Shown one piece after another: positions 43,823 through 63,711 of a DNA stretch of 64,000 bases (the first letter of the stretch is position 1; every line of letters starts with the position of its first letter). Made by a program: the position numbers and the translations under genes. The DNA comes from an uncultured Eggerthellaceae bacterium (GTDB lineage Bacteria > Actinomycetota > Coriobacteriia > Coriobacteriales > Eggerthellaceae), in the NCBI GenBank assembly GCA_905234785.1, contig CAJOIP010000017.1:24494-88493 (forward strand), in the 5' to 3' direction. The notes below the pieces were generated by a model, which saw only the letters and a program-made list of their open reading frames with translations, was not told where the DNA came from and did not search any database.

Positions 43823-43876
43823 AGGGGGGCAGATGAGCCGATGGACGCCGAAAGCCGGTGTCGTATACTTTCCCGC

Positions 43877-46763: not shown

Positions 46764-46822
46764 TTCAAGCACCTTCGGTTTAACCGAAGGACCCCTACCG
46801 CCTCCGGCTTTACGATGGTGCC

Positions 46823-48255: not shown

Positions 48256-49308
48256 CTATCGTGCGTTCTTGGCAACCAGGTCGGGGTCGTGAGCTGCGGC
48301 GATGGCCACTTCGCGGGTGATGAGCCGTTGACGCACCATCTGCGTGAGCGCGTTGTCCATGGTGACGGAGCCGAGTTCGGCGGTTGTTGCCAGCGTGTTT
48401 TCGATCTGCGGCGTCTTGCCTTCGCGGATGAGGTTGCGGATGGCGTGGTTCACGATCATGACCTCGCATGCCACGACGCGGCCCTGGCCGCTGGCGCGCG
48501 GCAGCAGCTGCTGCGACAGCACGGCGCGCAACACCATGGAAAGCTGCAGGCGAATCTGACGTTGGCGGCCTTCGGGGAACACGTCGACCAGGCGGTCGAT
48601 GGAATCGGCGGCCGACTGCGTGTGCAGCGTGCCGAACACCAGGTGGCCCGTTTCGGCGGCGGTAAGGGCGGTTTCGATGGTGTCGAGGTCGCGCATCTCG
48701 CCGATGAGGATGACGTCGGGGTCTTCACGCAAGATGGCGCGCAGGCCCTCGGCGTACGAAATGGTGTCGCGCCCGATTTCGCGCTGGTCGATCGAGCACA
48801 TCTTCGGCTCGTACACGTATTCCACCGGGTCTTCCAGCGTGATGATGTGGTCGGGGCGCGTGAGGTTTATCTCGTTCAAAATGGAGGCCAGCGTCGTCGA
48901 CTTGCCCGAACCCGTCTCGCCCGTGACGATGACGATGCCCTTCTGATAATTCGGAAAATCCTGAACCACCTTGGGAAGGCCGAGCGTCTCGAGCTTCGGA
49001 ATCGTGTTCGAAAGCAGGCGGATGGCTAGGCAGACAGAACGCATCGACTGGTAGATGTTCAAACGGCAACGCACATGGCCCGCATAGGTGCCCGCCATGT
49101 CGAGCTCGCCCATCTTGGCGATGGCCTCGTACGCATCGCCCGCTGCATCGCGCGCAATGGCTTCGCAGTCTTGGCGCGTCAGCACGTGGTCGCCCAAATT
49201 CACCAGCTTGCCGTCGACGCGGAAGCGCACCGGCACGCCCGCCGCAATGTGAATGTCGGACGCCCGCGCGGCCTCTGCCTGCGAGACGATTGTATCCATC
49301 AAACCCAT
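48256..49308 (-). CDS. pilT: Type IV pilus retraction ATPase PilT
   Basis: Walker A GETGSGKSTT, Asp box, Walker B ILIGEMRD, His box GHLVFGTLHT and ~350 aa without the N1 MshEN domain, which is the PilT/PilU architecture. Confidence 0.9.
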   Translation of the reverse strand: MGLMDTIVSQAEAARASDIHIAAGVPVRFRVDGKLVNLGDHVLTRQDCEAIARDAAGDAYEAIAKMGELDMAGTYAGHVRCRLNIYQSMRSVCLAIRLLSNTIPKLETLGLPKVVQDFPNYQKGIVIVTGETGSGKSTTLASILNEINLTRPDHIITLEDPVEYVYEPKMCSIDQREIGRDTISYAEGLRAILREDPDVILIGEMRDLDTIETALTAAETGHLVFGTLHTQSAADSIDRLVDVFPEGRQRQIRLQLSMVLRAVLSQQLLPRASGQGRVVACEVMIVNHAIRNLIREGKTPQIENTLATTAELGSVTMDNALTQMVRQRLITREVAIAAAHDPDLVAKNAR

Positions 49309-49497: not shown

Positions 49498-51186
49498 CTA
49501 ATCGGTAGTGTGAATGGTGCGGTACACCTCTTCGGCGGTGGTGATGCCGCGCAGCACCAGGTCGCGCGCGTTGACGATGATGGGCTGGAAGCCGCTTTGC
49601 TTCACGGCGGCGAGCAGCTGGTCGCGCGACGCGTGGCGGTAAATGGCGTCGCTGACAGCATGATCGACGACCAGCGCCTCGGCCACGACGATGCGCCCGC
49701 GATACCCGCTGTTGAAGCACTCGGGGCAGCCGCGCCCGCGGTAGAACTGCACGTTCTGCGCGTTCGGGTCGAAGCCCAGGTTGCGCAGTTCCTCGGACGT
49801 GGGCGTGTACGCCTCGCGGCAATGCGTGCACACGCGGCGCACCAGGCGCTGCGAAATGACGCCTTTCAGCGCCGTGGCCAGCATGAACGATTCGATGCCC
49901 ATGTCGGAAAGGCGGTCGAGCGTGGAAAGCGCGTCGCCCGTATGCAGGGTGGAAAGCACCAGATGGCCCGTGACGGCGGCGCGCATGGCTATCTCGGCCG
50001 TCTCGTTGTCGCGGATCTCGCCGACCGACACGATGTCCGGGTCTTGGCGCAAGATGGAACGCAGGCCGCTGGCGAACGTCATGCCCGTCTTCTCGTTCAC
50101 CTGCACCTGGTTCACGCCGTCGATGCTGTATTCCACCGGGTCTTCCAGCGTGACGATGTTCACCTGCTCGGTGTTCAGCGCGTTGATCATGGCGGAAAGC
50201 GTCGACGATTTGCCCGAGCCCGTGGGGCCCACCAGCAAGATGACGCCCTGCGTGTTCTCGATGAGCTTGTGGTACACGGCCAGGTTGTGCCCGTAGAAAC
50301 CGAGTTGCTCGGCCGTGCCCTGCTGGGCGTCGCGGTCGAGGATGCGCATGACGATCTTCTCGCCGTGCACCGTGGGCAGCGTGGAACAGCGCAGGTCGGC
50401 TTCGTGCATGCGGATGCGCACGATGGCGCGGCCGTCCTGCGGCACGCGGCGCTCGGTGACGTCCATGTTGCACATGATCTTGATGCGCGACGTGACCGAC
50501 TGCTGAAGTTCCTTCGGGATGGTCAGCGTGTTGTGCAGCATGCCGTCGATGCGCATGCGCACGTTCACCACGTCGTCTTGCGGCTCGATGTGGATGTCGG
50601 ACGCCTTGTCTGAGATGCCGCGCTCGATGATGCTATCGACCAAGCGGATGGAAGGCGCGGCGCTCTCGGTTTCCGTCATGTCGGAAACCTGCGTGCCGAC
50701 GTAATCGGTTTCGCGCGTGCCCTCCTGCTGCATTTCGCGGATGGCGCGTTTGGCGCCCTCGGTGCCGTACAGGGCGGAAATGGCGCGGTCGATGCCGCTT
50801 TGCGTGGAGATGACCGGCGTTATGCGTTTGCGGGTGGCCGTGCGCGCTTCCTCGATTGCGATGAAGTTCAGCGGGTCGGCCATGGCCAAGTACAATTCGT
50901 CGCCGCGCGTGCGTAGCGGAACGACTGAGTGCTTTTTCGCAATGTTCTTGGGCAGGATCTGCGCCATTTCCGGCGGAATGTCGGCGGTGGACAAATCGAC
51001 ATAGTCGATACCGAGCTGCATCATGAGCGCGTCGATAAGCTGACGTTCGGTGATGACGCCCGTTTGGATGAGCTCGTCGCCCAGGCGGCGCTTGCTTTCC
51101 TTCTGGGACTTCAGCGCCGCGCCGAGCTGCTCGTCGGTGATGACGCCGGCGTCGACCAGCAAGTCGCCCAATCGCATGTATTTCAT
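49498..51186 (-). CDS. pilB: Type IV pilus assembly ATPase PilB (GspE family)
   Basis: N-terminal MshEN/T2SSE_N repeats (LGDLLVDAGVITDEQLGAALKSQ..), Walker A GPTGSGKSST, Walker B IVSVGEIRD, His box, and a tetracysteine motif CTHCREAY..GCPEC. Confidence 0.9.
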   Translation of the reverse strand: MKYMRLGDLLVDAGVITDEQLGAALKSQKESKRRLGDELIQTGVITERQLIDALMMQLGIDYVDLSTADIPPEMAQILPKNIAKKHSVVPLRTRGDELYLAMADPLNFIAIEEARTATRKRITPVISTQSGIDRAISALYGTEGAKRAIREMQQEGTRETDYVGTQVSDMTETESAAPSIRLVDSIIERGISDKASDIHIEPQDDVVNVRMRIDGMLHNTLTIPKELQQSVTSRIKIMCNMDVTERRVPQDGRAIVRIRMHEADLRCSTLPTVHGEKIVMRILDRDAQQGTAEQLGFYGHNLAVYHKLIENTQGVILLVGPTGSGKSSTLSAMINALNTEQVNIVTLEDPVEYSIDGVNQVQVNEKTGMTFASGLRSILRQDPDIVSVGEIRDNETAEIAMRAAVTGHLVLSTLHTGDALSTLDRLSDMGIESFMLATALKGVISQRLVRRVCTHCREAYTPTSEELRNLGFDPNAQNVQFYRGRGCPECFNSGYRGRIVVAEALVVDHAVSDAIYRHASRDQLLAAVKQSGFQPIIVNARDLVLRGITTAEEVYRTIHTTD

Positions 51187-51326: not shown

Positions 51327-51638
51327 CTACAGGTCTACCACGGTGCACGTGTCGATGTCTTGGCGGACGTGGAAGATACGCCATACGGTGAGCGCGTCAT
51401 CGTCGTAGGTGTAATACACCCAGTAGTTCTTCACGAGCGTTCGCCGGTATTCGCGGTCGAGGTCGTCGCTGGCGAAGAGCATGCCCGATTCGGGAAGGTC
51501 GGCTAGGCGCTCGAAAGCGCCGTACAACGCTTCCAGGGTGCTTTCAGCCGCCTTGGGCATGGCCGATTCGTAAGCTATGTATATGTCCAGGCTTTCAAGG
51601 TCGAGCTGGGCCCGCTGTCGCAAGCGCACTTCACGCAT
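51327..51638 (-). CDS. RelE/ParE-family type II toxin
   Basis: MREVRLRQRAQLDLESLDIYIA..LADLPESG..VKNYWVYYTYDDDALTVWRIFHVRQD is a ParE-like pattern. The start overlaps the antitoxin stop by 8 nt. Confidence 0.7.
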   Translation of the reverse strand: MREVRLRQRAQLDLESLDIYIAYESAMPKAAESTLEALYGAFERLADLPESGMLFASDDLDREYRRTLVKNYWVYYTYDDDALTVWRIFHVRQDIDTCTVVDL

Positions 51639-51939
51639 GAAGGGCCTCGAGCGTTTCCGCAACTTGCTTCATGCGCGCCTTCGACTCGTCGAGCGAGACG
51701 GTTTTCGCGACGTAATTCGCCTCGATTTCGGCCTCGCGCAGCTTGCGGATATGGCGTTCGCGCTGCATGGCCCGGTTGTACGCCTGGCAATCGATGACCA
51801 CAAGCGCCGGCGCCCCGTTGCGTGTTAGGACAATGGGCTCGCCTGTCTCGCGCGCTGTTTCCTCGATTTCGGGAAGGTGCGTGCGCAGGTCGCTAATCGG
51901 ACGCGTTTCGGGAATCATGACTGGCAACGACACGGACAA
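51631..51939 (-). CDS. Phd/YefM-family type II antitoxin
   Basis: ..TRPISDLRTHLPEIEETARETGEPIVLTRNGAPALVVIDCQAYNRAM.. GTG start with RBS AAGGAGG. Confidence 0.75.
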   Translation of the reverse strand: MSVSLPVMIPETRPISDLRTHLPEIEETARETGEPIVLTRNGAPALVVIDCQAYNRAMQRERHIRKLREAEIEANYVAKTVSLDESKARMKQVAETLEALHA

Positions 51940-52069
51940 CCTCCTTGACTAGGTTGCCCGCATCGTATCATGACATGCAATATACATGCAATATTTTGCA
52001 CTATGTCAACCCGGGCTGTTCGGGTTGGCGCGTTTTTATAAGTATGTTGGCTGCAAACGATATGCGGCG

Positions 52070-52480
52070 TTATGAAAGCTCGACTTCAGCCCATGACTCG
52101 AATGGAAAATCGGGAATGCGCTTGAAGTCTTTTGCATTGTTGGAAACCAGCACGGTCTTGTTCGCAATAACTGTTGCGGCAATCATAAGATCTCGATCCC
52201 CGATGGCGTTCCCCTTCGAGCCGAGGAGCTGACGCAGCTTGCCGTATTCCACCGCGCATCGACCATCAAAGGGAACGACCTCGAACGCCTCGACGAATGC
52301 GCTCACCATGCTTTTTTCCTCTTCGGAACGGGCGCTATGTTCAGCACCATACCAAAGCTCGCCAACAACGATGGCTGGAAGGGCAAACCCTTCTGGCCCT
52401 TCCTTTTGCATGACTTGATAACCTTGCCGAAGGCGTCCTCTTAGAAACTCAATGCAAATGCAGGTGTCGAGATAACGCAC
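52070..52480 (-). CDS. vapC: PIN-domain toxin VapC
   Basis: VRYLDTCICIEFL.., ..VGELWYGAE.., ..IGDRDLMIAAT.., ..VSNNAKDF.. give the four acidic PIN positions. GTG start at 52480, 8 nt after the antitoxin stop. Confidence 0.8.
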   Translation of the reverse strand: MRYLDTCICIEFLRGRLRQGYQVMQKEGPEGFALPAIVVGELWYGAEHSARSEEEKSMVSAFVEAFEVVPFDGRCAVEYGKLRQLLGSKGNAIGDRDLMIAATVIANKTVLVSNNAKDFKRIPDFPFESWAEVELS

Positions 52481-52488
52481 GGTTTCCC

Positions 52489-52725
52489 TTACGCAAATAA
52501 ATGCTCTAGCTCGTCGTCGTCGGACGGTAGAGGATCGTCTGGAATCTCGAACGGGCCTTCCCATGCGCCATACAAATCCCAAAAGCCCTTCGGCCATCCG
52601 GAGGTCGCAGCGTCTTGTTCGATGAGGCGATTTGCGTACTTAGACATAGAAACCCCCGCCTCTTTAGAACGCTTACGCAACAGCGCAAGGTTTTCTTCAG
52701 TTACATAGAGCGACAGTTGGGGCAT
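52489..52725 (-). CDS. vapB: VapB-type antitoxin (RHH-like N-terminus)
   Basis: MPQLSLYVTEENLALLRKRSKEAGVSMSKYANRLIE.. looks like a ribbon-helix-helix, with an acidic C-terminal tail. ATG 52725. Confidence 0.6.
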   Translation of the reverse strand: MPQLSLYVTEENLALLRKRSKEAGVSMSKYANRLIEQDAATSGWPKGFWDLYGAWEGPFEIPDDPLPSDDDELEHLFA

Positions 52726-52858: not shown

Positions 52859-55800
52859 CTACGAAACCTTCACCCAAGTACACTCGCCCCAACCGTAATT
52901 ACGATAAACGCCATCGCCTAAGTGGGTAACCGAAAACGCGGACATCCAAGAGTCGCTTACCGTTGCCGGCAACGGCGTCTGCATATCCGAGCCGCCTTTT
53001 TGGACGCACTTGTAGTAGGACCCGTTGTAATAGATGAGGCCGTACACGCTTCCGTCCCACGAGATATCTGCCGCCACGTAAACGACGCCATCCGCACTCT
53101 GAAGCTCCTTCCATTTGTCAATAGAAGCGCTTGTCATGGCCTTTTCCGCAGCGCTCACCTCGCTGCCCGCTTGCGGACCGCTCGAGGAAGAGCTGACTTT
53201 CACCGACACTGAGCCAATCACCTTGCCGGCGAATTTCACGGTGATGGTCGTTTCGCCTTCCGCCAAATACGTGACGCGCGCGCTGCCGCCTTCCACGGAA
53301 ACGATGCTGGCATCATAGCCTTCGTACGTGAGTTGGCTTGCGGGATCTTGCACCGCCTGGTCGTTGATCTTGCAGTCGGAGACGCCGATAGCCCCCTGGT
53401 CGCCGACCGCGCCTGCCAACGACGTTGTGTCGAGCGTCGCTTCGACATCCATCGGCGAAACGTGCACGGGAACGGTGCCCAGCAGCTTGCCGTTGAGGAA
53501 AACGCTTACCTCCGCATCGCCCGCAGCAAGGTACTCGATCGTCTTGCTGCCGTTCGTGCACTTGGCGACGAGCGGGTTGCTGCACGTGTACGTCAGCATG
53601 CTTGACGGATCGCTCTCGACGGCATCCTTCTTATAGCTAACGTCGATCGCGCCCGTTTCTCCAACGCGCCCGGAAAGCGACTCGGTATTCAGCGATTGCT
53701 CGATGAGCGGCTCGACGTCGATGGTAATCGACCCCTGCGTACCATAGTCGACACGCGTGTCGTTCACATACAAGTCGTTCGACCATATTTTCGCCGTCAA
53801 CGTGATCGTTCCGCTCGATTTAAGCGTAATGCCGTCATTGTTTTTGTAGAACTGAATTGTCGCGTCACCAGCGGTGATGTCGAACGCCCAGCCAACATTG
53901 GCCATGCTAACCCATCCGGCATTCGTCCAAAGATCGACGAACACCTTGTCGCCATACTTGTATGGACCTTCGGGAGATATGCGAATCGTGGTTTCGGGCG
54001 TCACGTTCGGATCGACGTTTACAGATATGAAGCTCGTCGACTTCTTGCCGTTATACGTTGCAATGAGGCAGTACGTGCCCGCAGCGGGAACCGTTACCCT
54101 GCCGTTCGAAACGTCGGCCACCTTGTTGCTGCCCTGGGCGTCGCTGTACACCGCCAACGCAGCCTGCCCCGTAACGTCGGTATCGCCATACTTCACGGTG
54201 ACGCCGGAAACGGTAATCGGGAACCCGGCGATGCCGCTGAGCGCAGAGCCGCTAATCGTGACGTCGTATTGCGCCGCGCCGACGGTGACCGTAATCGAAT
54301 TCGTCGACTTCTTGCCGTTGTACGTCGCTTTGAGCGTATATGTCCCGGCATTGGGTATCGTGACCCGGCCGTTCACGACATCGGCCACTTTGTTGTTGCC
54401 CTGGGCGTCGCTGTATACCGCGAGCGATGCCTGCCCCGTAACGTCGGTATCGCCATACTTCACGGTGACGCCGGAAACGTCAATCGGACTTCCGGCCGTG
54501 CCGCGCATGGCGGAGCCGCTAATGGTGACCGTGCCCTCGGGGCCAGGCGGGATGTCGCCGCCGGAATCGAATTTGGGCTCGCCTGAAAGCGGCGTTATCG
54601 AAGTACCCGTTGCCGCCACGTCCATCTTGAACCATTTCACGCCAGACCCATAGCCATCGGGAAGCCGGGTCTCCTTCAGATAATACGTGCCCAGGAAGAA
54701 ATCGCCCACGTAGAAGACGCCCGTTTCGTCAGATGCGAGCCCGCTTGTCATCGTTGAACCGGCCGCCGATAGGATGTCGAACGTCGCACCGCCCAAGGGC
54801 CCCTTCGTGGCATCGTCGATTTTCTTGAGGATCACCTTCGAGGAATCGCTGTTGAACGTGTTGGTGATCGTCGCGATGCGCCCGTCTTGGCTATAGACGT
54901 ACGTCGGCGTGAAGTTCGAGGTCACATCCACATCGGCGCCAATCGCGTTTCGCTGGACGACGTTCATCTCGACGACGTAGTATCCGTACCCTTCGGGAAG
55001 GTTGAGCGCGACGGTGAACCAATCGTTCGAATCCCCTGCGCTCTTGCGCACGGTGTAACTTCCATACGGCTTCACGACGTAGCCTTCGGCGGCAAGCGTG
55101 TTAACGAGGTTCTCCGCCTCTGGTTGATTGGTGTAGTTGTCGATGGCGACCTCGCCAGGGGCGGCGCCGCTCGAGCTTCCGTTGCCGATCGGCTTGTAGC
55201 GGGAATTCAGGTGTTCCACCCAGATAACCTCGGACTGGCCGTCTTGCCCCTCGGGCACCGTCACCACGTAGTATTTGTGCTCGTCTTCGTCGTAAATCAA
55301 ATCGCCGCGAGACATATGATTCCAACGCGGATGGCCATTCCACAGTTGGTCGTATACCTTTGTGCTCCAAACCGTGCCCGTGTACTTGACTCGGTTGTTG
55401 GTAACTGCCGAGTTTTGGGAAGCCGGGCCATCGGGCATGTTGTTTACGTCAATGTTGTTATAGCCTTGGAAAATCCAGTAATAGCCAGGACCATCGCCTT
55501 CTTCTTTATCCCAGAAGAAGAAGGCCGAAGTCGCCGGCACGGAAATGCTGGTGTTCCCATCGGGATTAGTGTCGTAAAAATCGGACAGGGTCATTTCCTC
55601 GCCGTTGATGGTTACCGTCGGCTCTTCCACCTTCAGGCTATCGGCAAGCTCGACATTCGTGCCGATAACGCCCTCGGCGGCTTTCAGGCCAACTTGGTAC
55701 AGCTCGAAGCTTACCTCGAGGTTTTCAACGCGAGAATCTCCGCCCTGCACTTCATCGGCCCCGTCGTTCCATTTCTTCACAACGGTGAACGCCTTGGTGT

Positions 55801-58800
55801 TGAGCTTGTACGCATTGGTGACGGTGTACGCGCGTTCCCCCGGCACGAGCACCTGCAGGGTTTTCACGCCGGAAATGCGCTGTTCAGGCGAAATGTCGTT
55901 GGGAAGCGTCGACAAGAACGACGCCTGGTCAAACGGGACCTCTTCGCTCGTCGGCTTGGCGATCGCCCCAAGGTTGGCCCCTTTTGGAACGACGAGCTCG
56001 ACATATCGTTCGTCGGCGCCGACCGTGGCCGACTGTCCAAGCGTGACAGACGACCTGTACGCCACGCCTGCATCGTCGTGATACGTGAAGGACAAAACGC
56101 TTCCAGCCGCGAAGCTTTTTGCAGACGCGCCGTTTTCCGAGCTCAGGCTCAGATATGCTATCTGGGAATCGCCTTCGGGCACGTCAACCCAAAGATCCGC
56201 CGACGCCGAGTTATAGCTCGTCAACCACTCGCCCCGTTCGGCGTATCCGCTCAGCGCGTTTTCCGACAGCTCGTATGACGAGTATTCTTCGCGGGTGAGC
56301 ACATCCGCGTAGCGGGGCACGAACATGACCTTCGCCCATTCGACTCGCTCGCCCCCGACGACGTACGCGTCGTTGGCGGTCAGCGTGAAGTCGGCTGCGC
56401 TTCCGATGCCGGCCGGATACGTGTCCACCACGTGGTCGCCGCCATTGGCAACGCCGTTGACCGTGAACGAGATAGTTTCGTTCAGCTCCTTTTCCTCGTC
56501 GGGAACGCTCGCGTCCCACACCTTTTCGACGAGGATGGGAACGCGCAAATCCTCCCAGTAAATCGTGCCGTCAGCCGCGTCATGCGCCGTGCCCGTCAGG
56601 CCGTTGCGATCGTTGATGACGTTGTACAGGCAAGCGTTCGCCCCCGCCGCGAACGAGCCGAACGGTTTTCCTTCATCGCCATGGCCCTCGTATTGAACCG
56701 GGTCGATAAACACGCCGATACGCGCTGTTTCGGCGATGCCGTCTGATGCGATGTTCAACACCGTGGTGGAATTCTGGTTCAGGTACACATTGCACTGCTT
56801 GCCGGCGTCGTTCAGGTTGTCGTACACGCGCACATCGCCCGAGAAGTTCAACTTGGCGCCGACGTTGTTCGCGTCGAACGCGCCGCCGTTGACCGATTTG
56901 TTTCCGCTGTACGTTCCCCCGACGACGTCGACCACGCCGTCGTCGACCGTCCACACGGCACCGCCGACGTTTCCGGCGGCGTTGCCCGTCATCGTGCAAC
57001 CTTCAAACCTCACCGTGGCGAGACCGCGGTTCGAGCAAACAGCTCCGCCGATGTTCGGCGCATAGCAGTCGACGATGGAGCCGTTCTTCATCGAAAGGGC
57101 ATCCGCCCAGATGAAAATGCCGCCACCGGAATTCGCAGCCGATGTGCAGCCGGAAATACTGCAGTTTTCCAGAGTCGCCTTGACAAGCCAGTCGCTCAAG
57201 CAGATGCCCGCGCCGTTCAAATACGTCCTGCACGAGCTGATGGAAACATTGCCATCTTCGCCCTTCGCATTGAACGTCGCGCCCCCCTCGACGTAAACGC
57301 CGCCGCCATGCTGGCCAGATTCGCACTGGGCAATGGAAGACACGCCGAGCATCTGCAGAACGCCCACAGACTCGTACACGCCGCCGCCGGAGGCATTGGC
57401 TGAGGACGACGAGATGAGCGACGAATCTTTCATGGTGAATTTGCCCAGCGAATACACGCCGCCGCCGTTTCCGCCCGCCTTGCAGCTCTGCACCGACGCC
57501 GTATCTTGCAGGGTCGCCTTCGCGCCCTGCGCGACGTACGCTCCGCCGCCGTCGGCAGTGGCCGAGCCTTTTTCGATGCGCGTCGAACCGGCGATGACGG
57601 CGCTCGAGCCAGACGTGAGGAACAGCGCGCCACCGCTGGTTGCGCTACTGTCGAGCACCTTTACGTCAGTGAGGTCGACCGACGCGAGCTTGCCGCTTGC
57701 CGTGTTGCTGTTCAGGTAGATGGCGCCGCCGAAGCCGGACGCGCTGCTGTTCTGCATGGTGGCATTGCTGATCGTAGCGCTCGCGCCAGGCTCGACGATA
57801 ATCGCGCCGCCGTTCACGGCGCTGTTCCCGTCTTCTTCTTTCGATCCGCCGAATACCGTTTCCTTGTCGCCGCCGATGGTAAGGGTGCCATAGCCGCCTA
57901 TCTTCACGGCGCCGCCGCCGTGAACGCCGTCATGCCCGATGCCGTTATCAACTTTGTTGCCCTTGAACGTGCTGCCTGAAATCGACAGGGTGCTCTTGTT
58001 GTTCAGGGTCTTCGGCTCGTTGTTGACGGTAACCGTCTTGTCGGCATCGGACAACACGGCGATTGCGCCGCCTTCGCCCGCATACTTTTCCGCGTTCTTC
58101 TCGTCAAGGTACTTGGTGACCGTCGACGTGTTTTTCTCGAACGTACTTCCCGTAACTGCCACCATCGAGTTTTCGCACGCGCGTATGGCGCCGCCGGCTC
58201 CATTGCTTGCATTGTTCTTGAATACGCTGTCCATGATCGCGAGCGAATTCGGCTTCTTTTCGATTATCTGGTTCGCGCTGTCCTTCTTGCCCTCGTTCTT
58301 GTTGCTCGACAAGTTGATTGCGCCGCCGCCGGCATATCCGCTTTCATTGTTCTCGAACGTGGCGCCAATGGACACGACCGTCATTTCTTGGCCCGCGCAA
58401 ATCGCCCCGCCGTCTTCCGCCGCGTAATTGCCCGTCAGGACCGCGCCCCTAAGCAGGTAAATCGTCGACTTTTGGCTGGCATATACCGCGCCGCCCCGAC
58501 GCGCTGCGCCGTTTTTCAACGTCGTTCCCGTATCAACCACGAGAGTCGTATCGTCTTTCGACATGTTGACAAGGCCGCCGTAGCTGGCGTCGGAAACGGC
58601 ATCGCGTGCGCCGCTGTCGTTTATGTCGAAGCCGCCGTCCATCGTGATGTTGGCTAGCCAAAGCTCGTTCAGCTCGGTTCTGATCATCGTGCTGTCGGCG
58701 ATGCCCGCAGCCTTCGTAATCGTGCAGGCCGCCCCGACCTCCGGGTCGGTCGTAAGGGTGACTTTGTAATCGCCTTTTGCCGTGATGCTGCTCGACAGAG

Positions 58801-59200
58801 TGTAGTCGTTCACCAGCATCCGGAACACATACGACCCGTCGAATGCCGTGCCGTTGCTGTAGGTATATTTGCCCAGGTTGGAAAACGCAGCTTCGAGCGT
58901 CGTGAAGCCTGCAGGGTTGCCGTTAGCGTAGAGTACATTCCCGTTTCCATCGGTAACGATGGTTGCCCACCCCTGGTTCATGTACCAGGCATCGCTATTG
59001 GCCGCCGTGGTCAGGACGGTGGAGATGACGGCATCGGTGACGCTATCGCCCTCTTCGGTGCTGGTCGCCGCGAAACCGCCTGCGCCCAGAGCGGCGACCA
59101 GCGCCACAGTGGCAAGCGTTTCAGTGGCAACGGCGCCCTTCGAGCTGCGGAGGCGCTGCCAAAGGCGCTCGAGCCTTCCGCGTATGTGCTTGTCTGCCAT
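52859..59200 (-). CDS. Giant (~2,113 aa) surface adhesin: prepilin-like N-terminus, PMP-type GGA[IVL] beta-helix repeats, CnaB/SpaA-like and Ig-like (Big_2-like) domains
   Basis: ATG 59200 (the track start at 59215 is TTG). N-terminus MADKHIRGRLERLWQRLRSSKG|AVATETLATVALVAALGAGGFAA. About 18 GGAVYA/GGAICA/GGAINL/GGAIRA-type repeats with FxxN-like spacing (approx 56540-58550). VEKVWD and VKKWND CnaB-like motifs. KVILKKIDDATKGPLGGATFDI..YYLKETRLPDGY is SpaA-like. There are tandem Ig-like repeats. No LPXTG motif is present. Confidence 0.8.
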   Translation of the reverse strand: MADKHIRGRLERLWQRLRSSKGAVATETLATVALVAALGAGGFAATSTEEGDSVTDAVISTVLTTAANSDAWYMNQGWATIVTDGNGNVLYANGNPAGFTTLEAAFSNLGKYTYSNGTAFDGSYVFRMLVNDYTLSSSITAKGDYKVTLTTDPEVGAACTITKAAGIADSTMIRTELNELWLANITMDGGFDINDSGARDAVSDASYGGLVNMSKDDTTLVVDTGTTLKNGAARRGGAVYASQKSTIYLLRGAVLTGNYAAEDGGAICAGQEMTVVSIGATFENNESGYAGGGAINLSSNKNEGKKDSANQIIEKKPNSLAIMDSVFKNNASNGAGGAIRACENSMVAVTGSTFEKNTSTVTKYLDEKNAEKYAGEGGAIAVLSDADKTVTVNNEPKTLNNKSTLSISGSTFKGNKVDNGIGHDGVHGGGAVKIGGYGTLTIGGDKETVFGGSKEEDGNSAVNGGAIIVEPGASATISNATMQNSSASGFGGAIYLNSNTASGKLASVDLTDVKVLDSSATSGGALFLTSGSSAVIAGSTRIEKGSATADGGGAYVAQGAKATLQDTASVQSCKAGGNGGGVYSLGKFTMKDSSLISSSSANASGGGVYESVGVLQMLGVSSIAQCESGQHGGGVYVEGGATFNAKGEDGNVSISSCRTYLNGAGICLSDWLVKATLENCSISGCTSAANSGGGIFIWADALSMKNGSIVDCYAPNIGGAVCSNRGLATVRFEGCTMTGNAAGNVGGAVWTVDDGVVDVVGGTYSGNKSVNGGAFDANNVGAKLNFSGDVRVYDNLNDAGKQCNVYLNQNSTTVLNIASDGIAETARIGVFIDPVQYEGHGDEGKPFGSFAAGANACLYNVINDRNGLTGTAHDAADGTIYWEDLRVPILVEKVWDASVPDEEKELNETISFTVNGVANGGDHVVDTYPAGIGSAADFTLTANDAYVVGGERVEWAKVMFVPRYADVLTREEYSSYELSENALSGYAERGEWLTSYNSASADLWVDVPEGDSQIAYLSLSSENGASAKSFAAGSVLSFTYHDDAGVAYRSSVTLGQSATVGADERYVELVVPKGANLGAIAKPTSEEVPFDQASFLSTLPNDISPEQRISGVKTLQVLVPGERAYTVTNAYKLNTKAFTVVKKWNDGADEVQGGDSRVENLEVSFELYQVGLKAAEGVIGTNVELADSLKVEEPTVTINGEEMTLSDFYDTNPDGNTSISVPATSAFFFWDKEEGDGPGYYWIFQGYNNIDVNNMPDGPASQNSAVTNNRVKYTGTVWSTKVYDQLWNGHPRWNHMSRGDLIYDEDEHKYYVVTVPEGQDGQSEVIWVEHLNSRYKPIGNGSSSGAAPGEVAIDNYTNQPEAENLVNTLAAEGYVVKPYGSYTVRKSAGDSNDWFTVALNLPEGYGYYVVEMNVVQRNAIGADVDVTSNFTPTYVYSQDGRIATITNTFNSDSSKVILKKIDDATKGPLGGATFDILSAAGSTMTSGLASDETGVFYVGDFFLGTYYLKETRLPDGYGSGVKWFKMDVAATGTSITPLSGEPKFDSGGDIPPGPEGTVTISGSAMRGTAGSPIDVSGVTVKYGDTDVTGQASLAVYSDAQGNNKVADVVNGRVTIPNAGTYTLKATYNGKKSTNSITVTVGAAQYDVTISGSALSGIAGFPITVSGVTVKYGDTDVTGQAALAVYSDAQGSNKVADVSNGRVTVPAAGTYCLIATYNGKKSTSFISVNVDPNVTPETTIRISPEGPYKYGDKVFVDLWTNAGWVSMANVGWAFDITAGDATIQFYKNNDGITLKSSGTITLTAKIWSNDLYVNDTRVDYGTQGSITIDVEPLIEQSLNTESLSGRVGETGAIDVSYKKDAVESDPSSMLTYTCSNPLVAKCTNGSKTIEYLAAGDAEVSVFLNGKLLGTVPVHVSPMDVEATLDTTSLAGAVGDQGAIGVSDCKINDQAVQDPASQLTYEGYDASIVSVEGGSARVTYLAEGETTITVKFAGKVIGSVSVKVSSSSSGPQAGSEVSAAEKAMTSASIDKWKELQSADGVVYVAADISWDGSVYGLIYYNGSYYKCVQKGGSDMQTPLPATVSDSWMSAFSVTHLGDGVYRNYGWGECTWVKVS

Positions 59201-59269: not shown

Positions 59270-61816
59270 CTATCGCGAGTTCGGCACGAGCGTCTCAGGC
59301 GCCGGCCAATCTCCGTAGTGTGTGTGCAGATGCGTGATGAGCTTGCCCGAATCGTCGGAAAGCGGGGAATCGGAAAGCTCGGCGATGGTCTCGAAAAGGA
59401 ATTTCCCCTGATACGCTTGCGCAAGCGTGCGGTTGTACGAAGAAACGAGCGCCCTGTCGTACGGAACGGCATTGCCGGCGCCGCCGTCGTCGCCTTCGCG
59501 CGAAATGAACGAGCGGTAAGCTGACGTGTCCGCGTCGATTTGCGTTACTCCCGCCGCATTGGCGCCGCTGCCCATGCCTTTGTTGACGATTGCAAGGTAA
59601 CGGTCGCCGTCCAAGGCGGTTCCGGAAACCGAACCGGCAAAGCCGCCTTTCCCGACGCCGCTCACCGCTCCGACAGAATAGCTGTTGGCGATGCTGCCCC
59701 CCTGCGCCACGCCGACAAAGCCGCCCGTGGATACCGCCCCGCGAACCGAGCAGGTCGAGTAGCAGCTGGAAATAGCCGAATCGCTCGCGGACCCGACAAG
59801 TCCGCCAGCAGCGACGCCGCCGGACATGACGTTCAGGCGGGCCGCGCCCGAGGTCGTGGCGAGGTAGACGCCGCCCGACGTATGGCCGCCCGAGTAGCTG
59901 TCGCAGATGACGGCGCCGTTCTGGGCCGCGCCGACCAGGCCGCCCGCCGCGCCGCTTCCGCCCGTGGCGCTGACGTACACAGCCGCCGCGCTTTCCCTCA
60001 CCGTGCCGCCGTTCAGCAAGCCCACGAGGCCGCCGGCCGCGGTGGCTCCGGTCACTTGGGCAGACGCATCGGGGCCTGCGAGGCCGTCGCGCGCCAGGAC
60101 GTTCGAAACCTCGACGCCGGCGCCGACCTCGCCGGCCAGGCCGCCCGCCGCGCCGCCCGACGACGTGACGGACGAATCGACGAGCGTCAGGCCGCTGACC
60201 GCCGACCCGCTCATCCCGAGGGTGGCGAAAACGCCGGCGGAGCCTTCGACGTCGACCGCGATGTTCTCGATGGAGTAGCCGCCGCCGTCGTACGTCAGGA
60301 CGTAGCCGGGCTCGACGGGCAGGAACGTGCCCTGCTTTGACGCCACGGCGCCGTCGCGCCACATGCTGGCTGCCGCATGCTCGCTTTCCATGAAGCCGTT
60401 CCAGTCCATGTCGGTTTTCTGGACGGCCGTGACGAACCCGTACTCGTTCGCGACGGGGTTCAGGCTGGTGATGCGGCCCTGCGAATCGCGAACCGCCTGA
60501 TAGTTGAAGTGCGACACGGGGCTGGACAGGTTGGCGAGGTGCCTGAACGTGACGATTTCGACGGTGCGCCCTTGCGGGCCGTCGGCCGCCGCCGTGCCGG
60601 CCGCCGTGTCGGCCGCCGCCGTGCCGAACGTGGCAACGCCGCCCGTCGCCAGCGCCTCAGCGGGCGACAAGCTGGCGCCCTCGGATGCCTTGTGCGCGTT
60701 GAGGGCGTCGGCGAACAGGCTGTTCGTGGTGGCCGTCGCCGACTTGGCCACGACCGACGTGGTGTCCTTCGCGGCGACCCACGCGTAAATTCGCAGGTTC
60801 TCGCCGGGGACGAACATGCTCGCGTTGGCTTTCTTGTGGTCGGCGTCGCGGCTTTCGGCGACACGGTAGAAACGGCCCGCTTCCTTGGTCACGTCATCGA
60901 GCGTGAAGGTGTACGTGTTGCCCGAAACCCTCGCATCGGCCTCGTCGAACCATATGGCGGCGGCGTACGCAGTCTTGGACTCGCTTTCGACGACGAGCTT
61001 GACTTCGTATTCGTGGCCCGAATTGTTCGGGTTCGTCACCTTCACCTGCAGCGTGTCGCCGTTGATGACCTGCAGCGTGGGCGCCTTCAGCTTCAGCGCG
61101 GCCTCGCCTTCGGGCTCGGCGCCGTAATAGCCGATGATCTTGCCCGTGTTACGGTAGTCCTGGCGGGCCTCCCGGTTGTCGCCGCCGTACGCAGATTCCA
61201 AGCTCTGCGCGTCGAGGCCGCTGACGACGGTTTCGGAGAAGTCGACGTCCTTGGCGTAGAACACGTCGATGACCGTGGCAGTGGAAGGCTGGTAGCGGAT
61301 GACGTAGCTGCCGCCCGCGCGCACCGTCTCGTCGATGGCGCCGAACGGCAACATGAGGTTGAGGGCGCTCGCCTTGTTGTCGGGGCTGTTTGCGCTGTCC
61401 GCGCTGGCGGAAGGCGAATGCACGAAGAAGTACACGTCGTCTTGGCCAGCCGACGCGTCGAGGCTTTCGCGCGTTCCCAGGGAAATGCCGCTGCCCGATT
61501 CGAGCAGGCCCTGGCTTTCGGCGAGGGACAGGTGGTTCTGGGCCGCGACGTACACTTCCTTGGCCGTGGCGTCGAGCTCCGTTTGCTGAAGGTTCTTCCA
61601 CATCTGCATGATACCGACGAACGCCAGGCCGAGCAGCACCGCGGTGATGCCCACGACCAGCATGGTTTCCATCAGCGTGAAGCCGGCGGCGCGGCGTCCA
61701 GGTTGCGCGGGTTGCGCGGTGGCCCGTGCGCCAAGCTGCACGCGGCCGGGCACGGCGCCCAGGCGCAGCCGCTTCATGTTGTCCGTGCCGTTCATGTCTG
61801 TCATGACCTTCCCCAT
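59270..61816 (-). CDS. Large (~840 aa) prepilin-like protein with C-terminal GLUG-motif repeats (modular minor pilin candidate)
   Basis: ..GRRAAG|FTLMETMLVVGITAVLLGLAFVGI is a class III signal. The C-terminal third has repeated ..AAGGLAGEV.., ..AAGGLVGLL.., ..AAGGLVGAA.., ..AAGGLVGSA.., ..TGGFVGVA.., ..KGGFAGSV.. (GLUG-type). The exact start is uncertain (several ATGs between 61816 and 61778). Confidence 0.7.
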   Translation of the reverse strand: MGKVMTDMNGTDNMKRLRLGAVPGRVQLGARATAQPAQPGRRAAGFTLMETMLVVGITAVLLGLAFVGIMQMWKNLQQTELDATAKEVYVAAQNHLSLAESQGLLESGSGISLGTRESLDASAGQDDVYFFVHSPSASADSANSPDNKASALNLMLPFGAIDETVRAGGSYVIRYQPSTATVIDVFYAKDVDFSETVVSGLDAQSLESAYGGDNREARQDYRNTGKIIGYYGAEPEGEAALKLKAPTLQVINGDTLQVKVTNPNNSGHEYEVKLVVESESKTAYAAAIWFDEADARVSGNTYTFTLDDVTKEAGRFYRVAESRDADHKKANASMFVPGENLRIYAWVAAKDTTSVVAKSATATTNSLFADALNAHKASEGASLSPAEALATGGVATFGTAAADTAAGTAAADGPQGRTVEIVTFRHLANLSSPVSHFNYQAVRDSQGRITSLNPVANEYGFVTAVQKTDMDWNGFMESEHAAASMWRDGAVASKQGTFLPVEPGYVLTYDGGGYSIENIAVDVEGSAGVFATLGMSGSAVSGLTLVDSSVTSSGGAAGGLAGEVGAGVEVSNVLARDGLAGPDASAQVTGATAAGGLVGLLNGGTVRESAAAVYVSATGGSGAAGGLVGAAQNGAVICDSYSGGHTSGGVYLATTSGAARLNVMSGGVAAGGLVGSASDSAISSCYSTCSVRGAVSTGGFVGVAQGGSIANSYSVGAVSGVGKGGFAGSVSGTALDGDRYLAIVNKGMGSGANAAGVTQIDADTSAYRSFISREGDDGGAGNAVPYDRALVSSYNRTLAQAYQGKFLFETIAELSDSPLSDDSGKLITHLHTHYGDWPAPETLVPNSR

Positions 61817-61835: not shown

Positions 61836-62447
61836 TCACGATGCGAGCGCGAGCACGCGGACGTCGAATTCGTCGATGCCGGCGTGTTCCAGGACGTCGT
61901 CGCCCCGCACGACCTTCAGCCCACGGACCGTGAACACGCCCGCGTCTGCGTTCCATTCGATTGAATCGGCCTTCGCGCGCAGGCTCGCATTCGCCCCCGC
62001 TGCGGCTGATACGGGCACAAGCGGCGTCTGCACGACCTGCCCGGCGGCGTCCGTCTGCTCGAGGAACAGGCCTAGGGCGTCGTTGTATTTGACGGACGTG
62101 GCGTAGCCCGTTTCCGCGCTGTCGAAGGTGACGTACAGCATTTCGCCAGTCGATTCGTCCGTGACCGCGTTCGCCTGCACGAGCGCGCTCGCGTTCGGGT
62201 CGGCCACTGACAGTTCGTCGCGCAGGCGCGTGGTGGTGGTGGAAAGCAGCACCTGGGCGTTCGAGTTGTCGACCGCCGCCACGTAGGCCTTGGTGGCAGC
62301 CGGCACGCCCGCGGCCACGATGGTGCTGGCCAGCAGCATGATGGCCAACGCCGCCAGCGTTTCGGTCAGCGTGAAGCCCGCACGCGAGCGCTCGGAAGCG
62401 ACGCGTTCGCGCAGGCCGTTCATGATATGCCGGAACCGTTGCCGCAC
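61836..62447 (-). CDS. Prepilin-type minor pilin
   Basis: ..ASERSRAG|FTLTETLAALAIMLLASTIVAAGV (G-1, F+1, E+5). GTG start 7 nt after the upstream stop. Confidence 0.7.
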   Translation of the reverse strand: MRQRFRHIMNGLRERVASERSRAGFTLTETLAALAIMLLASTIVAAGVPAATKAYVAAVDNSNAQVLLSTTTTRLRDELSVADPNASALVQANAVTDESTGEMLYVTFDSAETGYATSVKYNDALGLFLEQTDAAGQVVQTPLVPVSAAAGANASLRAKADSIEWNADAGVFTVRGLKVVRGDDVLEHAGIDEFDVRVLALAS

Positions 62448-62453: not shown

Positions 62454-62858
62454 CTACCCTTCCGATGCCGAGCCCTGCCCGTATGCGACCACGGGGTCGG
62501 CGTTTCCGGGCACGCTCACCGAGACGTACGAAAGGCCGGGGATGGTCGAGCCGCCCGTCGAGGCGTCGACCCCAAAGCCCGTCATGGTTATGGAAACGCT
62601 CGCGTTCGAGCCGGCCGAGCCCTCGACGCCATCGCCTTCGACGGACTGGGCCGCCAGTGCGTCGGAGGCGGCGTAGTACCTCGTGGCCGCTTCGTCGCTT
62701 TGCCTGATCATGTTCGCGGCGACCGCCACGGCCATGACGAGCATGAGCATGCCGAGGCCCGCCACGATGACGGCCGCCAGCGTTTCGATCAGGGTTTCGC
62801 CGGATGTGCTTGCCAGCTTGGCGCGCACCGACGCCACGAGCGGGGACTTAACTGCCAC
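62454..62858 (-). CDS. Prepilin-type minor pilin (non-canonical +1 residue)
   Basis: MAVKSPLVASVRAKLASTSG|ETLIETLAAVIVAGLGMLMLVMAV (G-1, E+5). 134 aa. Confidence 0.6.
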   Translation of the reverse strand: MAVKSPLVASVRAKLASTSGETLIETLAAVIVAGLGMLMLVMAVAVAANMIRQSDEAATRYYAASDALAAQSVEGDGVEGSAGSNASVSITMTGFGVDASTGGSTIPGLSYVSVSVPGNADPVVAYGQGSASEG

Positions 62859-63711
62859 TGACCGGCCCCCTTCCCGGAACGACTCGCTCGACGTGCCACG
62901 TGACCGTGGTCGTCTTCGTCTCGGAGACGAGCTCTTCGTTCACCGTGCCGTCGTCGGTCGATGCGGTCGAGCCCTGCAGCTGCTCGCTGACGGCGACGCC
63001 CTCTTCCACGATAGCCGAGAGCTTCATGTACAGGTAGAAGCGGTCGTTCGAGTCCGCCGCGTCGTTGTGGAAGTACAGGTCGCACGTCCAGTCGTCGTTG
63101 AGCGTCGCGTCGACGGTCACGTCGTAGGCGGTTTCCGACGGGTCGACGCCCGGGATGTCGGGGCTGACCTTGAACGTGGCCGTTGACGCCGTGGCCTTGG
63201 GCAAGCCGGTGTCGTCGTCTTTGGCCGCGGTCGAGAGAAGCCATGTTCCCCAGCTTGCTTCCGCCAGCTGGCTCGACAGGTTCGCCTGCGTGGCCCAGCT
63301 GGACGGATGCCCGAAAAGCGCGTACGCGGTGGCGTCGGAGAGGAAGTCGTAGCCTTCGTCGTAGGCCGGTGCGACGAGCTCCGCGTTGGATGCGCCCTTG
63401 TCCTTCGCGAACGTTTCGGTGGCCGCGCCGGCTTGGGGGCGCGTGATGGTGCGCGTTCCCCGGCATGTTTCGGTCAGCGTGTACTGCAGCTCGCCCGATT
63501 CGCCGAACGCGTCGCTGAACAGGCCCGCCGCCGACGTGACCGCGTAATAGCGCTGATCGGCCTTGCCCTGCCCGGCGAATTGGCCCATGGAAGCCGTGGA
63601 CGCTGCCAGCACGACCGAGCTGACGACCGCGCACACGAGGAACAGCAGCAAGGCGAACGAGAACGACGCCCCGTTCTGCGATTTCAGCTTTATCGTAGCG
63701 CTGCCGGTCAC
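62848..63711 (-). CDS. PilX/ComGG-like pilus-associated protein (N-terminal hydrophobic segment, no E+5)
   Basis: ..KLKSQNGASFSFALLLFLVCAVVSSVVLAAS.. It is the first gene of the minor-pilin operon. GTG start with RBS GGGAAAGG. Confidence 0.5.
   Translation of the reverse strand: MTGSATIKLKSQNGASFSFALLLFLVCAVVSSVVLAASTASMGQFAGQGKADQRYYAVTSAAGLFSDAFGESGELQYTLTETCRGTRTITRPQAGAATETFAKDKGASNAELVAPAYDEGYDFLSDATAYALFGHPSSWATQANLSSQLAEASWGTWLLSTAAKDDDTGLPKATASTATFKVSPDIPGVDPSETAYDVTVDATLNDDWTCDLYFHNDAADSNDRFYLYMKLSAIVEEGVAVSEQLQGSTASTDDGTVNEELVSETKTTTVTWHVERVVPGRGPVSGS

Follow-up and report, generated by a model that had tools for sequence, protein, structure and literature searches.

A giant, predicted β-helix protein with a prepilin-like N-terminus in a type IV minor-pilin operon: a candidate pilus-tip adhesin

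The 64,000-nucleotide stretch of Eggerthellaceae DNA considered here (the window) raises the question of how a protein of 2,113 residues, which begins like a type IV prepilin and is encoded behind four minor pilins, is displayed outside the cell. A sequence-only reading had proposed it to be a giant modular pilin. Since it is the product of the last gene of a minor-pilin operon and bears a pilin-like signal, a retractile type IV pilus probably carries it at its tip, and the fuller reading, in which the giant is a tip-module adhesin held by its own pilin-like helix, is given an even chance.

The operon and its pilus locus

The position claimed for the giant gene, last in its operon after four products with pilin-like N-termini and near pilB, pilT, pilC and pilA, is borne out, and pilD and pilM are also found nearby (Table 1). 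The giant shares a transcript with the four minor pilins, and their operon borders a full set of monoderm pilus machinery that includes ATPases for extension and for retraction. On the 3' side of the giant there are two toxin–antitoxin pairs, then pilB, pilT, pilC and pilA, followed by an oppositely oriented Wzy_C gene and by pilD, pilM and the pilN-like and pilO-like genes. The pilN-like and pilO-like products, of 205 and 222 aa, each cross the membrane once; that of 222 aa matches T2SSM (E 3e-4), and the pilM/pilN-like/pilO-like order recurs in locus L005. The giant's open reading frame has a second possible start, a TTG at 59215; a Shine-Dalgarno sequence, GGGTGG, stands 7 nt 5' of the ATG.

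Minor pilin 1 gives no match in Pfam or NCBIfam and may be “K-like”, because it misses Glu5 and comes first in the operon; GspK, PilX and ComGG are pilins of this Glu5-less kind. Minor pilin 2 matches TIGR02523 (PilV) weakly (E 0.014–0.034) and N_methyl only at E 0.49, and minor pilin 3 is above the cut-offs of both PF07963 (21.6 bits) and TIGR02532 (21.2 bits). The layout of minor pilin 4 comprises one long α1 helix (aa 48–101), a β head, an Ig-like domain, a disordered linker and a GLUG β-helix. Its AF2 model from 27 sequences (pLDDT 76) draws the same helix, and Foldseek ranks 3n6z, a putative IgA1 protease, first (TMt 0.62). With weak N_methyl (19.5 bits) and Glug matches, and at least 207 homologues spanning ~95% of its length, this protein is, as modelled, a true modular pilin.

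Table 1. Features of the pilus locus and of the giant protein, in window positions (a slash marks the boundary after the leader Gly).
Feature	Position	Strand	Description and evidence
Minor pilin 1	62848..63711	minus	287 aa; KSQNG/ASFSFALLLFLVCAVV; family matrix 52.5 bits; no Glu5
Minor pilin 2	62454..62858	minus	134 aa; TSG/ETLIETLAAVIVAGLG; family matrix 34.1 bits
Minor pilin 3	61836..62447	minus	203-aa ORF (195 aa in public gene call); RAG/FTLTETLAALAIMLL; family matrix 52.4 bits
Minor pilin 4	59270..61816	minus	848 aa; G45/FTLME; predicted modular pilin; ends in conserved HYGDWP
Giant adhesin gene (candidate)	52859..59200	minus	2,113 aa + stop; ATG start
Leader, aa 1–22	59135..59200	minus	MADKHIRGRLERLWQRLRSSKG; basic, Gly end; proposed prepilin-peptidase cut after G22
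α1N-like hydrophobic stretch, aa 23–46	59063..59134	minus	Glu27 = +5; sole hydrophobic segment
Short linker, aa 47–77	58970..59062	minus	read from sequence; too short for a pilin head domain
Right-handed β-helix stalk (predicted), aa 78–885	56546..58969	minus	17 PMP-type GG[AGS]x repeats; BLAST to homologues
SpaA/prealbumin-like domain, aa 1455–1533	54602..54838	minus	PF17802 E 7e-12; PDB 8bdw E 8e-7
Two tandem ~85-aa repeats, probably Ig-like, aa 1557–1641 and 1646–1729	54014..54532	minus	read from sequence
Two Big/HL_N-beta-like repeats, aa 1836–1915 and 1922–2003	53192..53695	minus	PF21461 26.7 bits, just below cut-off
C-terminal Trp/Tyr/Gly-rich domain, aa 2004–2113	52862..53191	minus	candidate ligand-binding module (putative function)
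PilB extension ATPase	49498..51186	minus	T2SSE E 2e-126; MshEN
PilT retraction ATPase	48256..49308	minus	350 aa; T2SSE E 8e-50
PilC platform protein	47026..48240	minus	T2SSF E 6e-59
PilA major pilin	46320..46835	minus	VKG/FTLMEMLIVIAI; N_methyl 30.3 bits; family matrix 27.7 bits
PilD prepilin peptidase	42741..43898	minus	A24_N_bact + Peptidase_A24; proposed to cleave giant after G22
pilM, pilN-like, pilO-like genes	40385..42708	minus	PilM_2 E 7e-22

The N-terminal signal

A class III signal is defined by a hydrophilic or neutral leader of 6–26 aa ending in Gly, followed by ~21 mainly hydrophobic residues with Glu at +5 (PMC4471445). Prepilin peptidase cuts such signals behind the Gly, at the cytoplasmic face of the membrane. 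The N-terminus of the giant, MADKHIRGRLERLWQRLRSSKG/AVATETLATVALVAALGAGGFAA, with the slash at the Gly22 boundary, contains both the leader and the hydrophobic-stretch/Glu5 elements of this textbook definition. The basic, Gly-ended leader described earlier is confirmed at 22 aa; it holds six Arg/Lys and one His, ends in KG, and its RLRSSKG agrees with the family leader pattern [KR]L[KR]SxxG. For the Glu at +5 and the ~20 hydrophobic residues claimed to follow, the count is 23 mostly hydrophobic residues. From the Gly onward the reported likeness to the 134-aa prepilin is in register (G-x4-ETLA[AT]V), and past this the two run one residue out of step; the pattern recurs in the 203-aa neighbour (G/FTLT-ETLAAL).

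Written formally as G, four uncharged residues, E and 15 further uncharged residues, the class III pattern has five matches in the six-frame translation of the window, namely in three minor pilins, PilA and the giant, and none in the N-termini of 103 homologous giants. With a family matrix built from 227 minor-pilin N-termini, all from other loci, six of the 127,774 six-frame window positions reach at least 5 bits, and these are the four minor pilins, PilA and the giant. The giant scores 25.9 bits in the expected register, the lowest of the six (PilA, 27.7); the N-termini of the 103 homologous giants score −6 or less on this matrix, and the Sec-type giants 3' of sister operons −24 to −50. Most of the giant's total comes from the leader (15 bits), and its mature helix adds 2.7 bits versus 26–54 bits for the Glu5-bearing pilins of the window, the Glu5-less minor pilin 1 having −4.8 for the helix part of this Glu5 matrix. 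The prepilin HMM check that had been suggested turned out negative, as PF07963 (N_methyl) and TIGR02532 match neither the whole giant nor its aa 1–70, even at E ≤ 10; these models also miss or barely detect the 134-aa and 287-aa neighbour pilins. Judged by the matrix, the giant's signal resembles the pilin signals of the operon family to which it belongs.

The same N-terminus that fits class III also has a candidate signal peptidase I site, GFA/A, at the end of the hydrophobic stretch, which brings in a different explanation, that of a non-pilin tip adhesin similar to PilY1. According to this, a long Sec signal would be cut by signal peptidase I after GFA (after AMA in the related giant P0002), with the Gly and Glu5 being relics or coincidence, and the giant, once released, would attach to the minor-pilin complex by non-covalent contacts, the 848-aa GLUG pilin being its most likely partner. 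The negative prepilin HMMs, the missing pilin head and the plausible −3/−1 site after the hydrophobic stretch favor such a route. It is opposed by the confinement of the class III pattern and leader match to the pilins and the giant in the window, with none among the 103 control signals, and by the conservation of the signal region above the rest of the protein (orthologue identity of 52% over the N-terminal 46 residues vs 37% over the whole protein), a feature seldom seen in Sec signals.

In the hydrophobicity scan only aa 23–46 are hydrophobic (best 19-residue Kyte-Doolittle window 1.68), and the stretch is Ala/Thr-rich with a mean value of 1.57. The claimed lack of LPXTG or another C-terminal anchor holds, as the motif and Kyte-Doolittle scans of the whole giant find neither LPXTG nor a second hydrophobic segment. 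A single N-terminal hydrophobic segment of this kind, with no other anchor, would also suit a cell-surface adhesin that keeps an uncleaved signal-anchor, spans the wall by itself and shares its regulation with the pilus but is not carried by it, and giant β-helix/Ig-like adhesins are common among Gram-positive gut bacteria. The stretch is, however, weak as a stable anchor (Kyte-Doolittle 1.6–1.7) and is broken by the Glu.

Domain layout and a possible mode of display

A single-sequence AF2 model for the giant, whose pLDDT of 40 is of unusable confidence, draws helices at 27–44 and 49–68. A strict modular pilin is ruled out, since only aa 47–77 separate the hydrophobic stretch from the β-helix N-cap and there is no pilin head. 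The name “giant modular pilin” is thus true of fused relatives elsewhere but overstated for the window protein, with its ~30 residues between the hydrophobic stretch and the β-helix, and the lack of a head makes it better named a headless, pilin-anchored adhesin.

The stalk is predicted to be a β-helix with GGA[ILV]-type motifs at the ~25–30-residue period of PMP-type repeats, the period being ~27 residues from aa 236 to 775. Its N-cap and C-cap (NDRNGLTG...IYW) are common to other giants, and the N-cap can be aligned to modules lying inside other giants; homologues bear PF02415 and PF13229, and TIGR01376 gives E 0.031 with the giant itself, below its cut-off. The sequence-only reading had listed ~18 repeats plus CnaB/SpaA/Ig domains, of which 17 GG[AGS]x repeats are counted, Pfam gives one SpaA domain and weak HL_N-beta matches, and the Ig-like repeats are probable. 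The SpaA-type domain also occurs in giants of other pilin operons, and in a PDB sequence search the giant matched SpaA-type domains and no other solved structure. The C-terminal Trp/Tyr/Gly-rich domain has no family match in Pfam or NCBIfam and is conserved in part in P0002 (39% identity along 160 aa, up to aa ~2063). If the N-terminus is located at the pilus, this domain would be the most distal part.

In the model proposed for the giant as a helix-held tip adhesin, its N-terminus would insert into the membrane in the manner of a prepilin and be cleaved by PilD after Gly22, following which the remaining 23-residue Glu5 helix would pack with the α1 helices of the four minor pilins in an assembly-priming complex. 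This complex, with the giant included, would arrive at the pilus tip, from which the ~800-residue β-helix, the SpaA and Ig-like domains and the C-terminal Trp/Tyr-rich module would extend outward in that order, allowing PilT retraction to pull, possibly, on a ligand of that module. A stronger form of the model, in which the PilD-processed α1N helix is the only pilin part of the giant and joins the four-minor-pilin tip bundle, so that bacteria hang proteins of 200–400 kDa on a retractile pilus, is put slightly short of an even chance. The points against a helix-held giant are the HMM misses, the weak mature helix, the absent head, the AXA site of P0002 and the occurrence in two lineages only. 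If true, the headless giants, the fused prepilins of 3,000–3,655 aa and the Sec-exported sister giants would make up a widespread family of pilus-tip mega-adhesins, so far undescribed, in Gram-positives of gut and rumen, and adhesin and pilus would have become linked anew on several occasions.

Relatives and known systems

The order of four minor pilins and then the giant is kept in L001 and L012, the only orthologous lineages, and Gly−1 and Glu5 are conserved in the orthologous lineage; the giant's type of N-terminus is found in two independent lineages only. P0002 has a hydrophobic stretch followed by an Ala/Pro/Glu-rich low-complexity linker and a textbook AXA site (AMA/DD), and its family-matrix score is 9.2 bits. 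Of 43 informative related loci, 40 have a giant beside or fused to the same four-pilin operon; it is fused to the fourth pilin, directly downstream, or upstream, with covalent giant–pilin fusions in 22 loci. The linkage of orthologues to pil genes, which the earlier reading had proposed to check, is retained. Coupling and fusion at this frequency argue for a physical link and not co-regulation alone, which, together with the weak hydrophobic stretch, makes the self-anchored cell-surface adhesin quite improbable, even though relatives in L099 and L100 have plain transmembrane anchors and one in L098 a lipoprotein-like signal.

The fused giants are true prepilins of up to 3,655 aa (L057, 3,655 aa; L054, 3,221 aa; L074, 3,478 aa), and that of L057 reaches 24.2 bits with N_methyl, above the cut-off. 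Its residues 776–1400 match what follows the signal at the start of the separate giants of L022 and L031 (E 1e-78 to 1e-94), so that this fusion equals a pilin plus a separate giant and the N-terminal end of such giants belongs at the pilin. Fusion to the fourth pilin in related operons makes type IV pilus display of proteins above 200 kDa credible. Among the separate giants of sister operons the signals are of Sec type, lipoprotein-like or plain anchors, with a clear Sec type in at least 11 of those lying downstream, and some downstream giants of other lineages have signals without Glu5; the pilin-type anchor is therefore not a general solution. These signals make a Sec-exported, PilY1-like adhesin a serious, if less likely, alternative. 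It would also agree with the L057 fusion, which indicates that such giants go with the fourth pilin.

PilY1/PilC proteins are tip adhesins of type IVa pili in Pseudomonas, Neisseria and Myxococcus, and PilY1 has a type I signal, four minor pilins alongside, a tip position and a C-terminal β-propeller that docks on pilins (PMC7541494). The giant is comparable in being a large candidate adhesin, encoded with four minor pilins, one of them without Glu5, and expected in the priming/tip complex with a variable adhesive part. It differs in its prepilin-like N-terminus, and the fused relatives place the N-terminal end of the giant, not the C-terminal one, at the pilus. Pfam and NCBIfam give no PilY1 β-propeller match in the giant, nor is another docking domain recognizable in it, which again speaks against PilY1-like docking.

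Modular type IV pilins such as PilB and PilC of Streptococcus sanguinis, surveyed by Raynaud et al. 2021 (PMC8179133), have the complete module, a ~50-residue α1 helix with a β-sheet head, and the largest highlighted case has 860 aa. The giant shares with them a class III-type N-terminus followed by adhesive modules, a gene in a pilus locus and the expected display at the tip, whereas it has an α1N-like helix only, 2,113 aa, and is missed by IPR012902-type models. One architecture in that survey is a pilin with a second module, IPR011493, termed a predicted M26 peptidase (PMC8179133); because of the GLUG and IgA1-protease-like matches of the 848-aa pilin, this may be the same module as its GLUG β-helix. 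The fused giant pilins (L057, L054, L074) come from the same operon family as the window giant and have their N-terminal end at the pilin, and L057 also has the SpaA stalk domain type in common with it. They are continuous with the fourth minor pilin and have a full pilin module and a canonical KG/FTLAE, whereas the window giant has a gene to itself and an atypical signal of its own.

The tapirins of Caldicellulosiruptor, going by the consulted part of bioRxiv 10.1101/359786, which gives 38.4 kDa for their solved cellulose-binding C-terminal domain and notes no pilin-like signal, are much smaller than the giant and encoded outside any minor-pilin operon. The PDB search, with its SpaA-type matches only, found no sequence match between the giant and this solved domain. 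The sugar-binding proteins of the Sulfolobus bindosome, which are archaeal, small and serve solute uptake (PMC4471445), resemble the giant as non-pilins with a class III signal whose surface localization needs a type IV filament system; unlike what is proposed for the giant, they are without demonstrated filament display. The giant itself is encoded as an identical protein on four contigs from independent metagenomes, and its host is an Eggerthellaceae bacterium of gut or rumen.

The pilus locus and the layout of the giant protein

The window, which has a G+C content of 60–66% and encodes a PilB (extension ATPase) whose 90% cluster includes a protein assigned by name to an Eggerthellaceae bacterium, carries a giant adhesin gene whose product is found identically on four contigs from independent metagenomes. 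Its host is accordingly most likely one of the Coriobacteriia living in a gut or rumen community. Upstream of the giant gene, in the same orientation, are four genes whose products have pilin-type N-termini. On its 3′ side two toxin–antitoxin pairs are followed by pilB, pilT, pilC and pilA; beyond pilA come an oppositely oriented Wzy_C-family gene and then pilD, pilM, and pilN-like and pilO-like genes. The sequence-only reading had described the gene, its N-terminus, the four pilin genes and the neighbouring pil genes correctly.

The AF2 model of the fourth, GLUG-type minor pilin (848 aa), built on a 27-sequence alignment, has an uninterrupted helix (aa 48–101) right behind the cleavage Gly, followed by a beta head, an Ig-like domain, a disordered linker and a GLUG beta-helix, and as modelled it shows a genuine modular pilin. 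The predicted beta-helix (aa 500–740) is similar to the putative IgA1 protease domain BACOVA_03286 (3n6z; TMt 0.62) and to part of the solved IgA1 protease of pneumococcus (6xja). An invariant HYGDWP motif closes every protein of the 848-aa family, and in the related locus L057 the fusion lies at this motif.

The giant itself begins with MADKHIRGRLERLWQRLRSSKG/AVATETLATVALVAALGAGGFAA, the stroke marking the proposed cut after Gly22, and about 30 residues separate its hydrophobic stretch from the beta-helix. This leaves no room for a pilin head before the beta-helix N-cap; because of that, and of the further caveats on its signal, the giant cannot be filed among the modular pilins sensu Raynaud et al. 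(PMC8179133), and the earlier label of a "giant modular pilin" goes too far for a protein with at most a pilin's signal and α1N. An AF2 run on aa 1–400 without an alignment gave a pLDDT of 40, too low to use. No family matches the stretch between the beta-helix and the SpaA domain, and a PDB sequence search with the giant returned SpaA-type matches only, with no relation to tapirin or PilY1. Neither an LPXTG motif nor a second hydrophobic segment occurs anywhere in the protein, and a sortase-anchored adhesin was rejected, as the C-terminal hydrophobic tail is missing too; so were Tat, YSIRK and KxYKxGKxW-type signals, no matching motif being seen by eye. A DNA-level search found no 5′ end of a pilin gene copied into the gene for the giant.

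Features of the pilus locus, of the giant protein and of the related loci
Feature	Location	Strand	Remarks
Giant adhesin gene	52859..59200	-	ATG start, preceded by GGGTGG; 2,113 aa
Giant, beta-helix region	aa 78-885	-	17 GG[AGS]x repeats, spacing ~27 residues
Giant, SpaA domain	aa 1455-1533	-	family match
Giant, after SpaA			two tandem repeats, ~85 aa each
Giant, after ~85-aa repeats			two Big-like repeats
Giant, C-terminal module			Trp/Tyr/Gly-rich
Minor pilin, 287 aa			G/ASFSF..., without Glu5
Minor pilin, 134 aa			G/ETLIE
Minor pilin, 203 aa			G/FTLTE; PF07963 and TIGR02532 above cut-offs
Minor pilin, 848 aa	59270..61816	-	G/FTLME
Two type II toxin–antitoxin pairs	51327..52725	-	between giant and pilB
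Wzy_C (O-antigen ligase family) membrane protein	43796..45364	+	522 aa; between pilA and pilD
ORF, 172-184 aa	45377..45931	-	directly 3′ of pilA; called gene in public records
Fused pilin–giant, L057	L057:8023-18990	+	3,655 aa; N_methyl above Pfam cut-off
Upstream giant, L016	L016:1-7647	+	7,436 aa in public gene call
Giants with Glu5-less starts	L014:7495-17438 and L101:4088-5047	+	3′ of operons
Primase-like gene and two serine recombinases	L016 and L017, 12856-17778	+	3′ of fourth pilin

The N-terminus of the giant as a candidate prepilin signal

The HMM check proposed along with the sequence-only reading went against it, as neither PF07963 nor TIGR02532 matched the giant, even when aa 1–70 were searched on their own at E<=10. 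Of the four minor pilins next to it, two likewise escape these curated models or are barely detected by them, and a family-specific test was therefore built. An alignment of the 848-aa family led to 80 related metagenome loci, and 227 distinct N-termini from the four minor-pilin classes, leaving out the window and its orthologous loci, were turned into a log-odds matrix covering positions -12 to +25 around the Gly. Run over the 64-kb window in six frames (127,774 positions), the matrix gave exactly six matches of >=5 bits: the four minor pilins (52.5, 52.4, 34.1 and 30.1 bits), PilA (27.7) and the giant (25.9, with Gly22 falling at -1), while 103 control N-termini, taken from homologous giants that carry other signals, scored at most -6. 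Five sites in the six-frame translation fit a formal pattern (G, four uncharged residues, E, 15 uncharged residues), namely those in three minor pilins, PilA and the giant, and none of the 103 controls fits it. Given these scans and control values, the prepilin-like motif of the giant is far beyond chance, and it shows all the features by which class III signals have been defined (PMC4471445).

The score is unevenly distributed, however, since the leader accounts for 15 of the 25.9 bits, its RLRSSKG fitting the family's [KR]L[KR]SxxG, whereas the Ala/Thr-rich mature helix contributes 2.7 bits, as against 26–54 bits in the Glu5-bearing pilins of the window; on the same Glu5-only matrix the 287-aa pilin, which lacks Glu5, scores -4.8. 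The N-terminus recurs in a single other lineage (P0002, the homologous giant of L001, and L012/L013), which is 37% identical overall and 52% over the first 46 residues, and which keeps both Gly-1 and Glu5. This conservation spans two lineages only, because an exhaustive phmmer search with aa 1–130 against 1.84 billion representatives found no further protein with that N-terminus and a profile of aa 1–52 found nothing in a word-indexed database. A genome-contig profile search with a two-sequence 848-aa alignment, which relied on generic pilin N-terminal patterns, yielded unrelated pilins and no related operon. P0002 scores 9.2 bits, and its hydrophobic stretch runs into ...FAPAMA/DD, a textbook signal-peptidase I site, followed by an Ala/Pro/Glu-rich linker.

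Giant adhesins in related four-pilin operons

The four-pilin operon is widespread, and a giant ORF accompanies it in 40 of the 43 related loci with enough flanking sequence, which bears out the linkage to pilus genes looked for in relatives. In 22 loci it is the fourth pilin that has giant size (2,000–3,655 aa), with a canonical KG/F[TS][LM]AE start; closed ORFs of 3,166–3,655 aa starting KG/FTLAE, in which the fourth minor pilin runs into the giant adhesin, occur in L057, L054, L059, L060, L068, L074 and L087–L089, and the L057 protein has Flg_new, DUF5979 and SpaA domains. Just past HYGDWPTPE, the conserved end of the pilin, its aa 776–1400 are 31–35% identical (E 1e-78 to 1e-94) to what directly follows the signal peptide in the separate L022 and L031 giants, a match that, at sequence level, identifies a gene fusion or fission tying the fourth pilin physically to the giant's N-terminal end.

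In 11 loci a separate giant follows directly downstream with an ordinary Sec-type signal. Export of the window giant by Sec and subsequent docking on the 848-aa pilin would be in keeping with these signals and with the signal-peptidase I site of P0002, and less so with the prepilin register around Gly22; it is a tentative alternative. The third arrangement (9 loci) has the giant upstream, and it is here that the window giant has its nearest distant homologues, which are PMP-type beta-helix giants. Those of L016, L046, L053, L056, L058, L061, L063 and L066 (2,600 to >7,400 aa) adjoin the operon and combine a PMP-type beta-helix with a C-terminal SpaA domain, their ORFs being 5′-cut with N-termini beyond the loci.

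In closer relatives the gene 3′ of the fourth pilin has a lipoprotein-like signal (L098) or a plain anchor (L099, L100). A pilus-independent, membrane-anchored adhesin would resemble the latter, and is improbable for the window giant, set beside the operon linkage and the pilin fusions. Also among the closer relatives, the giants of L014 (5,898 aa) and L101 have Glu5-less "G/hydrophobic" starts (MSDR.Q...G, then ~20 hydrophobic residues) that resemble the start of the first minor pilin. In L014 this stretch gives a gapless, in-register alignment with the first minor pilin of its own operon, which lacks Glu5 too, so that giants may have gained a pilin-like start a second time and independently. 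The association of giant and pilus is general, but the giant's mode of export or attachment is not. In L016 and L017 a D5_N/DUF5906 primase-like gene and two serine recombinases come after the fourth pilin, in what looks like an integrated mobile element where other loci carry the giant.

Proposed attachment to the pilus and wider significance

In the best-supported reading, the four minor pilins would make up a complex that primes the pilus and sits at its tip, and the giant would be the adhesin of this complex, the role that PilY1 has in type IVa pili (PMC7541494). Its N-terminal end would sit at the pilus, an orientation dictated by the fused relatives, with the C-terminal module pointing outwards. 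For this lineage we favour attachment by a Glu5-bearing helix of its own that PilD would process, though the call could go either way. These steps of processing, localisation and binding are what we infer from the sequence, the gene order and the fusions.

In the current view, type IV pili acquire functions by way of PilY1 or of small modules on minor pilins. Both modular pilins and tip adhesins of the PilY1 type are known, and our literature search turned up no description of adhesins this large that are linked or fused to type IV pilins. In a 2021 survey (PMC8179133) the largest modular pilin to be singled out has 860 aa, and the L057-type fused prepilins are about four times larger. These findings point to a recurrent genetic unit of gut and rumen Gram-positive bacteria, consisting of four minor pilins and an adhesin of 2,000 to >7,000 aa, which may be continuous with a pilin or have a gene of its own next to the pilins, and these mega-adhesins, with true prepilins of >3,000 aa among them, are a more striking result than the window protein. 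If the giant rides the tip, the retractile motor could reel the cell to its substrate via a stalk whose length is plausibly tens of nanometres or more; it would also have to be asked how such a cargo crosses the cell wall and primes assembly, and whether incorporation minimally needs a full pilin fold or just α1N. The giant likewise poses a concrete substrate question for prepilin peptidases.

Several smaller features of the window may be added. The toxin–antitoxin pairs comprise a 78-aa NikA-like/RHH protein with a PIN toxin, and Phd/YefM with ParE; a PIN or Phd/ParE module likewise lies 3′ of the giant in L001 and L012. The G+C content falls to 0.55 at 52–54 kb. The ORF directly 3′ of pilA has neither a family match nor a pilin-like N-terminus. 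Pilin glycosylation of the TfpO/PilO type is known, and by analogy the Wzy_C protein might glycosylate the pilin.
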